From: Balanoglossus misakiensis
Lineage: Eukaryota; Animalia; Hemichordata
Length of the DNA: 64,000 nucleotides
Direction of reading: 5' to 3'
Assembly (NCBI GenBank): GCA_040954595.2
Contig: CM082578.2
Location: 6,495,519-6,559,518, forward strand
Shown here: piece by piece, positions 31,201 through 34,200 of the stretch
Layout: each line of letters begins with the position of its first letter
Position numbering within the stretch: position 1 is the first letter of the stretch
The notes under the pieces: model-generated
Seen by the model: the letters and a program-made list of their open reading frames with translations, nothing else
The model's database searches: none
What the model was told of the DNA's origin: nothing
Translations under genes and position numbers: made by a program

Positions 31201-34200
31201 TTTTTTTTCTTTTTATGTGATGTGTGTGTATATATGTGTGTGTATACTTAACACTTAAGCACTGCAAGAGATCTTTTTGAAAAGTGATTGTAAAAATTTC
31301 CTGCATTTGTTCCAATTATTCTGATGAATTATATTTTGTTCCTCGCATCTGATGATACATGTAGGTCGGAAGGACCATGAAATAATGTCCCTAGGTGTTT
31401 AATAAGTTTTCCTGATCATAACGTTCACCTTTAGCTTCAGGAGTAGACGATGTTTACAACAAAAATGTGCTCAAGAAAATACTGGATATAATTACATTGA
31501 CTACGTAGCTAAAGTAGAAATTTTACCGTGTTGAAAATGGCAACCGCTGTGTAATCTGCACCAAACATGCAATACTTAATGGAATTGATGTGAATTGATG
31601 TCAGCTTTGAAATAATAACACAGGCTCGCTCTCCAAATCAACACTTCCTACTTCCTGATTGGACTCTGTCGTGAGATTGGAGTATATTGCCATGTATTAA
31701 ACTTCTGTGGGTTTACTTTTTATGTTCATACGCCAAATCATAAAATCAGATAGTTATTTATCAATATTACCATTGTGAGGTGTCAATTATGACTACATTA
31801 CCCACAGTTTATGTAAATTTTTATTTTATGATTATATCGCTCAATGATATAAACTACGTTTTGGCTCGCAAAGCCTGTGTGTCATCCATAGGAATTTTTT
31901 TAAAGCGAACACTGAATCCCCGCTTGAGGGTTTTCTGAGACGTGATTGTACATGCAGCTCGTGTCGATATTTCTTAATCCACTGTTTTTAGGGGGTCTGC
32001 TTCCAAGAAGTGCTTCTGGTGATTGTCTGCGATCGAGCCAAATGGGGGAAAGATGATGAGCTTGGTTGCCAAGCAACAGCCGCTTTAAAGAGACCGTGGC
32101 TGCATGAAGATTGTGTACTTCAACCATGTTTTTTCCGCGACAGCTTTCTCTTGATTACCGAAGAAGTCTTGCTTGAGTTCTTCCCCTCCCCCTCAGTCAA
32201 TCTGAGTGCGTTCAAATTTAGTGCCTGCCCCCGCCTACAGCTGTGGAACTGTAATTGAAAACCAAAGAAGTGACGCATTTTGAGGCCCAGTAGCACCTTT
32301 CCTGCTAAATCAGACAACAGAGCCAATCTTGGCATACTTACCTTACGGCATGTCCAAGTATACAATGAAACACACTATCGCCAAGCCAAGGCATATTTTG
32401 AAGAAATTTCTGGCCATGTCAGCCATTCTAAATCTTGATGAATTAAATGCAAAAAATAACGTAAAATGTACAAACAAACGGAAAAAGTGAAAGTCATTTT
32501 TGGCGGAAATAAATATGGAATATGGGACAGTGTGACAAATCGGTAGGATTAGAGACACATTTTGTTGGAATTAATGTTTACAAAAAAAATTTCATTGTTG
32601 GCATGTGTCATCTACAGTCACGTCCAACATGAACAAAGAATTGACAGTCCTGAGTGTTGGCACGTACCGGTAGTACATTTTTAGTTCATATCGATTGAAA
32701 ACCGGCATTCAAAATAGAAAAGAGGAAATCTGTGTTTTCCGAAGTCATTATGTTGTCCAAGTGACGTCAATGGAAGTACTTACACATCGGCAGCGTGACG
32801 GATGACAGTGGTGGTTGCCAGGGCAACGGAGCGCGAGAGATGCGTGGATGCCCGTCGCATATTTTTGAAGTTGGCTACAGAGGAAGCACATAATGACCTA
32901 TTTAAAAATTTTGCCGCAGTCGGACGACCGATTCAATTTGTCCCCCTTCTGTTGTGGCACACTTTTGTGGTTTTCACACCGAATTGGAGTTTAATCCTGG
33001 TTTCAATGGATTTTTTTTCCCCACAGTGGACCGGAAGACTTAGTTCTTTATTTTATGAGTACATAAGACTTTGATCTCCTACTATAATACTTTGATCTCC
33101 TATTTTTTTATTTGCTATCATATGAACTGAACTGGTTTCAGCTGGGGGAAATACTTCCGCATCAGCTTGCCTATCCCAAATAGATGGACATTCTGTATGA
33201 GCCTAGGAACGTCAATCACTGTGTTTGCCCTATAAAACACAAGATCTATCAGATCTATAATATAAAATAATATTCTGGTCTATTTTCATTCAATTCACAA
33301 AATATGATACATTGCTGAAATCATCAATGCATTATCACAAAAGTTGTTTATTTTCTTAGTTTGAGTTATTAATATAATTTTGTTTTGCGTGAGATGGTAG
33401 ATCGTGCTGTGTTGATACTGAGACATGCTGGTATGATGGAAGTGTAACAGGCTGTTTTACAGAATTTCATGTGTGCTCTATCGTTTGGAAGAAGTAAAAA
33501 TCAGCATTTGTCAGCAAGGAGGATTTGTTTATGTCATTTTGGTGTGGTATAGACAGTCAGTTAATGTGGGGATGGAAGATGGTGGTATTTATGGGAAAAG
33601 TTAAAATAAAATTATAACAAAAAAGGGAAAGTGAACACCGCAATTCTGTATGAGTGTCAAATTCGTCAATAAAATGGGAAATAAAAGAACACCGCTTGAC
33701 ATGAATTCAAATCTATAGACACACCTGCAACCACTGTAAACCTTAACTGACATGTTTGGTATTTTTTGGACAAGATAGTAGTTCTGCTAAATTTAGAGAT
33801 GGAGAGTCATCAAAAAGTTAGAAAGAATTGTAGTAAAGTTATGCTTTTCTGCTTTAAAGGTACATGGTCACCTCCAATTTACATGTGTCCATAAATTGGT
33901 GTACCTGAGTTTTCTAAAGAACATATGGTGGCACTCGTTTTTTTCGCGTGTGTCACCCACTAAAACCTGTGATTGGCTGGATCTCAATTTGCCATGATAA
34001 CTGGCAATGTTCTGATAACTTTCATGGGTAGCCACGTGGATGTATAAATCTTTTATTTTCTCTATAAACATGGTGGAATATTGCGTCATGAAGAACATTG
34101 ATGCCAGCTGACACCTAAGTGATAGGTAAAAAACAATCAGAAAATTGTAAAAATAGCTGAATATTTATAGTAGCACTCCAAGGTTTTTTGTGGGACAGTA

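Follow-up and report, generated by a model that had tools for sequence, protein, structure and literature searches.

The regulins that act on the calcium pump SERCA are small single-pass peptides (about 28-66 amino acids, aa) with a C-terminal membrane helix. They bind the M2/M6/M9 groove of the pump and alter its KCa or Vmax, reside in the endoplasmic or sarcoplasmic reticulum and are often expressed in muscle. Members have been described from vertebrates and arthropods, and in the literature cited here a PKA switch is known from PLN and ALN, both of vertebrates. Identity within the family can be as low as 15.4% (sarcolamban versus phospholamban; PMC13240139), and the family has been placed at the origin of complex body plans (PMC4807881). 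A hemichordate member is therefore to be expected; a phospholamban-type switch outside vertebrates would be the surprising part. Human phospholamban (PLN, 52 aa; PMC13240139), which brakes the calcium pump of the heart, has the sequence AIRRAST over residues 11-17, in which PKA acts on Ser16 and CaMKII on Thr17 (PMC8970585, PMC13368986), and is encoded in exon 2 of a gene nested in an intron of CEP85L (PMC13619452). Here we describe a candidate gene placed antisense, on the minus strand, within coding intron 5 of TBC1D30 in a 64,000-nt stretch of DNA from the enteropneust hemichordate Balanoglossus misakiensis (GCA_040954595.2, CM082578.2: 6,495,519-6,559,518, forward strand; the whole stretch is hereafter the window). 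We conclude that this is probably a real, unannotated, antisense-nested, three-exon gene that most likely encodes a phosphorylation-gated SERCA regulator, whose membership of the regulin family is not established.

Gene model and coding potential

To score the splice signals of the candidate, we trained matrices on 27 donors and 25 acceptors of the window genes TBC1D30, PSMD6 and an aminopeptidase (the PSMD6 and aminopeptidase joins translate without stops) and ranked its sites among the 784 minus-strand GT sites and 780 acceptors of the host intron. The membrane exon, which holds an open reading frame (ORF) for a 27-residue membrane peptide, ends at donor 32341 (12.9 bits), which ranks 1/784 and scores higher than all 993 plus-strand sites; acceptor 32248, on the far side of intron B, likewise ranks first (10.5 bits, 1/780). 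The eight-letter junction at this donor, AG/GTAAGT, occurs as one copy per strand over the whole 64 kb, the plus-strand copy being counted only. Further upstream, donor 32783 scores 7.1 bits (rank 7/784) and the acceptor of the upstream exon 5.2 bits (rank 68/780). The predicted 3' exon would start at acceptor 32248, and the AATAAA at 31825 is the sole copy between 32248 and 31790.

An initial annotation had described this locus as a regulin-like micropeptide gene, and each signal it named is present in the sequence: the GT/GTAAGT donor at 32784/32783, the AG at 32429-32428, the 86-nt exon with its 27-aa ORF, the AG/GTAAGT donor 1 nt past the stop, and the antisense location inside the 15.6-kb TBC1D30 intron 5. 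The first intron, put at about 355 nt, measures 356 nt. Its gene model needs revision, to include a probably coding first exon and a 3' exon that probably begins at 32248; its regulin-like reading gained from an in-frame RRAST on the upstream exon and from a helix in the sarcolipin register, both described below.

The upstream exon had been called CpG-rich and non-coding, and only the first of these terms is confirmed. It contains 9 CpG in 91 nt (observed/expected ratio 1.3, versus 0.59 for the host intron), and the CpG peak at the candidate gene, 15 per 200 nt against a median of 4, is joint highest in the intron. The exon is most likely coding rather than non-coding: the frame from ATG 32860, which has A at -3, crosses the 32784>32427 junction without a stop and enters the 27-aa ORF. 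The spliced product would consist of 25 codons (P0002), a junction Val to which the upstream exon gives 2 nt, and the 27 codons of the membrane exon (P0001), for a total of 53 aa, or 55 aa if the in-frame alternative AG 6 nt upstream is used (exon start 32433). A coding role for the first exon, which is probable, makes a peptide of phospholamban length (53 aa) the most likely product, rather than one of sarcolipin length (27 aa).

Codon usage is consistent with this assignment. Using synonymous-codon scores trained on the same three genes and compared with stop-free intronic stretches, we observed that the peptide frame is the best of three in both the upstream exon (6.4 versus -0.15 and 1.3; top 0.8% of 1232 stretches) and the membrane exon (2.7 versus -8.0 and -9.3; top 3.7% of 1101 stretches). 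The high G+C of the upstream exon inflates its comparison with intron DNA and leaves the comparison between frames unaffected. G+C content at third codon positions is 0.63 in the candidate coding exons and 0.61 in the genes of the window.

The predicted 53-aa peptide starts M-RRAST, and this RRAST is identical to human PLN residues 13-17. As the upstream exon had originally been chosen for its donor, with the motif unnoticed, RRAST serves as an independent, out-of-sample check of the regulin idea. Its assignment to the peptide holds only if donor 32783 is used.

Several minor observations concern the same sites. A perfect cAMP response element (CRE), TGACGTCA, one of 5 in the 64 kb, lies at 32769-32762, about 15 nt into intron A; it would fit cAMP control at the level of transcription as well. 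Two minus-strand donors, 32346 and 32341, stand in tandem 5 nt apart, and use of the weaker, upstream one would remove the stop codon. The 32784/32427 splice also generates an out-of-frame ATG-TAA start-stop that overlaps the ATG of the 27-codon ORF. A MEF2/TATA-like site at 32907 was rejected as not significant, there being 12 such sites in the intron. An Rfam scan of 30000-41300 gave no match.

Table 1. Features of the candidate gene and its host intron, in window positions.
Feature	Position	Strand	Remarks
Upstream exon	32784..32874	-	91 nt if acceptor 32876-32875 is used, otherwise maybe a first exon; predicted coding from ATG 32860
RRAST codons, residues 2-6	32843..32857	-	predicted PKA site Ser5, predicted CaMKII site Thr6
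Intron A	32428..32783	-	356 nt; contains a perfect CRE and a rival donor at 32667
Membrane exon	32342..32427	-	86 nt; 27-codon ORF P0001 at 32426-32343; stop 1 nt before donor AG/GTAAGT
Intron B	32249..32341	-	93 nt; from the best donor to the best acceptor of the host intron's minus strand
Predicted non-coding 3' exon	31805..32248	-	about 440 nt, 3' end approximate; inferred, AATAAA at 31825
Host intron (coding intron 5 of TBC1D30)	25712..41337	+	15,626 nt; spliced alignment to Ptychodera flava TBC1D30 (P0003)

The predicted peptide and known SERCA regulators

The 27-residue part has a single hydrophobic segment (Kyte-Doolittle 19-mer maximum 2.17) that finishes one residue before the C-terminus, and structure prediction returned one helix (predicted local distance difference test score 89.8). 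The membrane helix spans approximately Phe8-Leu24 and is followed by a short acidic C-terminal tail (Asp-Met-Pro at 25-27); at 27 or a predicted 53 aa, this is the small single-pass layout typical of SERCA regulins. We set the helix register by published residue correspondences (bioRxiv 2020.07.19.211243, PMC8396278, PMC13368986). In this register the P0001 numbering coincides with that of sarcolipin (SLN, 31 aa). Arg6 stands at the SLN Arg6/PLN Gln29/SLB Lys slot, and the hydrophobic residue at position 8 is Phe8, a conservative change in the Leu8 (SLN)/Leu31 (PLN) slot (PMC13368986). Aromatic Tyr23 fills the SLN Trp23 slot and is followed by Leu24, as in SLN. A basic residue at the helix start, an aromatic 17 residues on and then Leu is also the sarcolamban arrangement, as in SLB Lys9/Trp26 (bioRxiv 2020.07.19.211243), and the Tyr-Leu that begins the Drosophila SCLA luminal peptide (PMC9338278) would match Tyr23-Leu24 in the inferred register.

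An identity of 10/20 to sarcolamban A had been proposed for this peptide. Checked by eye, the count is correct against the sarcolamban A sequence given in that annotation, of which only the last 7 residues (PMC9338278) and the 28-aa length (PMC13240139) were confirmed. Given residue composition, at least 10 identities in 20 would be expected at about 1e-6 per register, and at 4e-4 when the window's other membrane ORFs, 20 in number with 424 registers, are taken together; this statistic rests on that partly confirmed sequence and carries no correction for how many families could have been compared.

With the upstream exon joined, the anatomy becomes phospholamban-like, the predicted 53 aa comparing with 52 in PLN. 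A predicted cytosolic domain of about 32 aa precedes one C-terminal helix, and Ser and Thr of the identical RRAST are in the PKA and CaMKII positions (PMC8970585, PMC13368986). The gene also lies, as had been pointed out for PLN, in an intron of another gene (PMC13619452); the host genes differ, TBC1D30 here and CEP85L for PLN, and we rejected nesting as a sign of synteny. Among other regulins, in ALN (65-66 aa) an RRxS site (Ser19) is well separated from the helix at 43-66, a spacing close to that of the candidate (PMC8396278, PMC11588527), and a Lys is located close to the Asn34 slot in MLN (PMC8396278). Lys10 of the candidate adjoins that slot, one residue before it; to occupy the slot, it would need the one-residue register shift that the same source models for MLN.

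Other features of the peptide depart from known regulins, and several weigh against its reading as a SERCA regulator of this type, as do the splicing, chance and search results marked as such in the next section. The Asn34 (PLN)/Asn11 (SLN) slot, termed essential in PMC8396278, holds Ile11, with loss of the Asn that contacts SERCA Thr805; the earlier claim that the regulin LFxxF motif reads FFKIC here thus fails in part. The Trp-Leu-Leu of sarcolamban reads Tyr-Leu-Asp, with Asp25 in the Leu25 slot, and Met26 occupies the Val26/Val49 slot, at which sarcolamban has Tyr/Cys; the Drosophila SCLA and SCLB luminal peptides likewise deviate from Trp-Leu-Leu (PMC9338278). The phospho-site and the Arg/Gln29 slot that follows it are 27 residues apart, compared to 13 in PLN, and the ORF is spread over two exons, while the coding region of PLN is kept in exon 2 (PMC13619452). 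Compared to SLN, the candidate has no Thr5 and no luminal Arg27-Ser-Tyr-Gln-Tyr31 tail, which SLN requires (PMC8396278). Unlike sarcolamban, it has a shorter luminal tail, and a separate exon upstream contributes a kinase motif that exactly matches that of PLN. Phosphorylation of ALN in cells is mainly through PKC (PMC11588527), and no tool gave a sequence match between the candidate and ALN or MLN. The anatomy is phospholamban-like, yet the candidate has neither the Asn34 equivalent nor the sarcolipin tail, and we therefore assign it to none of PLN, SLN and sarcolamban and refer to it as a candidate regulin with a mixed layout.

On the side of the pump, we recovered 32 full-length SERCA sequences from metagenome records and confirmed one against solved SERCA1/2 structures. 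The groove contact residues Phe88 and Thr805 (PMC8396278) are invariant in 32/32 of these SERCAs, which were judged invertebrate from sequence and do not include the hemichordate's own. The groove is general in these pumps, and its invariance says nothing about binding of the candidate peptide. Many peptides bind the SERCA groove non-specifically (bioRxiv 2020.07.19.211243), so that kinship could not be concluded from binding alone.

Taking the gene model and the peptide together, we favor, with some confidence, a reading in which the gene yields a tail-anchored peptide of PLN length that would sit in the SERCA groove, slow pumping and be released by PKA phosphorylation of Ser5. The exons with their splice signals, the uninterrupted frame, RRAST and the single hydrophobic C-terminal helix can be read directly in the sequence, and the steps that follow are deduced. 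The gene would be transcribed and spliced at 32784>32427 and 32342>32248, and translation would start at ATG 32860. The tail anchor would insert in the membrane of the endoplasmic or sarcoplasmic reticulum with the N-terminus cytosolic; for tail anchors in general, an acidic three-residue tail such as this favors the endoplasmic reticulum over mitochondria. The helix would then occupy the SERCA M2/M6/M9 groove and slow pumping. Given the Ile in the Asn34/Asn11 slot, the effect is more likely to be on turnover than on calcium affinity, and a turnover effect has been proposed as the default outcome of groove binding (PMC8396278). Phosphorylation of Ser5 by PKA, and of Thr6 by CaMKII, would lift the brake. 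Initiation at ATG 32426 or 32417 could, in addition, produce a form of 27 or 24 aa that lacks the switch.

We suggest, more tentatively, that this may be the first phospholamban-type kinase-switched SERCA regulator outside vertebrates, in which a sarcolamban-like membrane exon is joined to a separate RRAST exon and one locus gives long PLN-like and short SLN-like products. If this is true, cAMP control of calcium re-uptake would reach back to the deuterostome ancestor, and the locus would illustrate a route by which a single gene could have given rise to both PLN and SLN. A sarcolamban-like helix combined with the exact PLN kinase motif in a hemichordate peptide would bridge the gap between vertebrates and arthropods and make the origin of adrenergic SERCA control testable. 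It would also add natural sequence variants, one of them lacking the "essential" Asn, to a family with almost no variation in mammals. The locus also provides a concrete address, antisense in TBC1D30 intron 5, for other hemichordates, echinoderms and amphioxus. Our literature searches found no report of a hemichordate regulin; the family alignments of Magny 2013 and Baena-Angulo 2025 were outside their scope and could already list deuterostome members.

Alternative explanations and chance expectation

The same anatomy would be found in a real PKA-gated, tail-anchored micropeptide that has another membrane pump, channel or enzyme as its partner and resembles regulins by convergence. We regard this as unlikely. 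It would account for the incompletely kept Asn34/Asn11 and Trp-Leu-Leu positions, RRxS is merely a PKA consensus (PMC8970585), and a SERCA groove that accepts many non-specific peptides (bioRxiv 2020.07.19.211243) is a point in its favor as well. However, convergence would have to explain two separate regulin likenesses, the helix register and the exact five-residue motif, on two different exons, and with sarcolamban and PLN only 15.4% identical (PMC13240139), missing residues are weak evidence.

Splice-site strength bears on a second alternative, in which the locus encodes only a short sarcolipin/sarcolamban-type regulin (27 or 24 aa, or 41 aa from ATG 32708), the upstream exon is 5' untranslated region, and RRAST is either an untranslated coincidence or part of an upstream ORF. 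The rival donor at 32667 is stronger than donor 32783 (9.6 bits, rank 2/784, versus 7.1), is also in frame, and gives the top-scoring chain; if used, it would sever RRAST as a 26-codon upstream ORF. The acceptors of the membrane exon are weak as well (2.3 bits, rank 165/780, for 32427; 2.5 bits, rank 153, for 32433), and still within the range of the window's real acceptors, whose lowest leave-one-out score is 1.9. ATG 32426 is exactly at the sarcolipin Met1 register (Arg6 = Arg6), and an ORF confined to the second exon would be arranged as in PLN (PMC13619452). In contrast, the RRAST frame outscores the other two in codon usage and reaches an all-codon score in the top 0.1% of intronic stretches, while that of the 32708 frame is near zero, and the base at -3 is A for ATG 32860 and T for ATG 32708. 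We consider a short product alone unlikely, and retain the 53-aa switched peptide as the preferred reading.

To estimate chance expectation, we used order-4 Markov simulations of 15.6-kb strands, in runs of 1845 and 1978, together with 7 real control strands. The thresholds were set after the feature had been seen, which counts against the reading, and the figures are guides and not exact probabilities. The general architecture is common: any spliced membrane-ORF chain appeared in 678/1845 null strands, with a summed splice score at least as high as that observed in 131/1845, and a loose exon with a membrane ORF appeared in 803/1978. The added features are rare. In the 1845-strand run, RRxS/T was present in 11 strands, RRxS/T together with the splice score in 2, and RRAST in 0. 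A membrane exon with a donor of at least 11 bits arose in 6/1978 strands and, with the additional presence of a stop within 10 nt of that donor, in 0/1978. The literature-based helix register pattern (Arg6/Tyr23 type) was found in 5/1978, an upstream in-frame exon with RRxS/T in 10/1978, and the register combined with RRxS/T in 0/1978. The real control strands gave a loose membrane exon in 4/7, a chain in 1/7 and the stricter features in 0/7. From these data, architecture alone proves little, and the combination of features is hard to get by chance.

The motif itself was assessed by shuffling of the upstream exon. Among 127,334 stop-free shuffles of its coding bases, RRxS/T occurred in 5484 (4.3%) and RRAST in 22; when codon position was kept (167,188 shuffles), the counts were 2402 and 10; and in 200,000 residue shuffles they were 27,791 (14%) and 573. 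The rates of a generic RRxS/T in the nucleotide and residue shuffles weigh against the reading.

Our homologue searches used queries of 25-40 residues, each from the frame of one exon and in some cases extended by intronic codons, a design of low sensitivity. No homologue was found in the 22-70 aa part of a 5.8-billion protein set, though it included Ptychodera flava and Glandiceps proteins, or among 1.84 billion protein representatives, both being weak searches for 27 residues. Pfam gave 0 families for each exon peptide, PDB sequences 0 matches to them, and the ESM Atlas no match for either exon (recognition 1641 and 1343, under 2300). A back-translated pattern recovered 0 stretches from a metagenome DNA collection, Foldseek gave 0 matches, and VIA-align returned generic helices only (best Z 4.3). 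The 64-kb window contains no paralogue or repeat copy: blastn gave only the self match, and the best other tblastn match (E 0.074) falls in a stop-bounded frame that has no ATG ahead of the matched part. Six consecutive residues are matched in 2/117 unrelated loci (L027, L035); both matches were rejected as homologues, being out-of-frame chance matches inside SERCA genes. A scan of viral contigs for SERCA motifs gave 0.

These results bear on whether the exons are chance pseudo-exons or a dead relic, with no transcription or translation. Loose membrane-ORF exons are frequent in null and real control strands, the protein sets searched with single-exon queries gave no homologue, six-residue matches arise by chance, and the candidate was drawn from very many windows. 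Set against this are the rank-1 donor with a stop 1 nt before it, unseen among the null strands, the rank-1 acceptor that follows after 93 nt, the codon bias seen in each coding exon, and a CpG peak that is joint highest in the intron, and we judge a chance origin to be very unlikely. Least credible, and in our view highly improbable, is a slightly longer protein in which the helix serves as an internal anchor, made through donor 32346, which drops the stop and reads into the 3' exon: at 6.3 bits this donor falls among the scores of real donors in the window, and acceptor 32240 would add 39 codons ending in a stretch that is basic as read by eye, but the 12.9-bit donor competes 5 nt away, the best acceptor, 32248, adds only about 9 codons, the extension has no Pfam match, and the 71-2000 aa part of the 5.8-billion protein set gave 6 candidates, 0 with E<=10.

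Host gene and neighborhood

The reconstructed TBC1D30 matches the Ptychodera flava protein at 865/1121 residues in a spliced alignment, and Pfam RabGAP-TBC was found in both exons bordering the host intron. The first coding exon of TBC1D30 is 83% identical to that of Ptychodera flava, 61% to that of Glandiceps talaboti and about 50% to those of three echinoderms, with 5 hits among 94 candidates; these identities suggest a Ptychoderidae-like family. At 25227-25520 (+), 98 copies of an ATG/GAT triplet abut the acceptor of TBC1D30 exon 5, where the repeat takes the place of the pyrimidine tract.

Elsewhere in the window, an O-fucosyltransferase-like gene lies at 21-1428 (+), with a Pfam O-FucT match (E 2e-7) slightly short of the curated cut-off and an N-terminal membrane anchor on a short first exon. 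The gene at 51784-54473 (-) we take to be a PSMD6-like proteasome lid subunit gene, and that at 57551-63561 (+), which has a GAMEN/HELAH signature, is presumably an aminopeptidase N-like gene. The host intron contains a second CpG-rich island at 38900-39290, also joint highest at 15 CpG per 200 nt, which includes a perfect CRE (39149), has a donor of 7.5 bits on the plus strand (39292) and lacks an ATG in frame with TBC1D30 exon 6. This island may act as an enhancer or as a distal promoter for the nested gene, or it may represent an alternative first exon that is non-coding.

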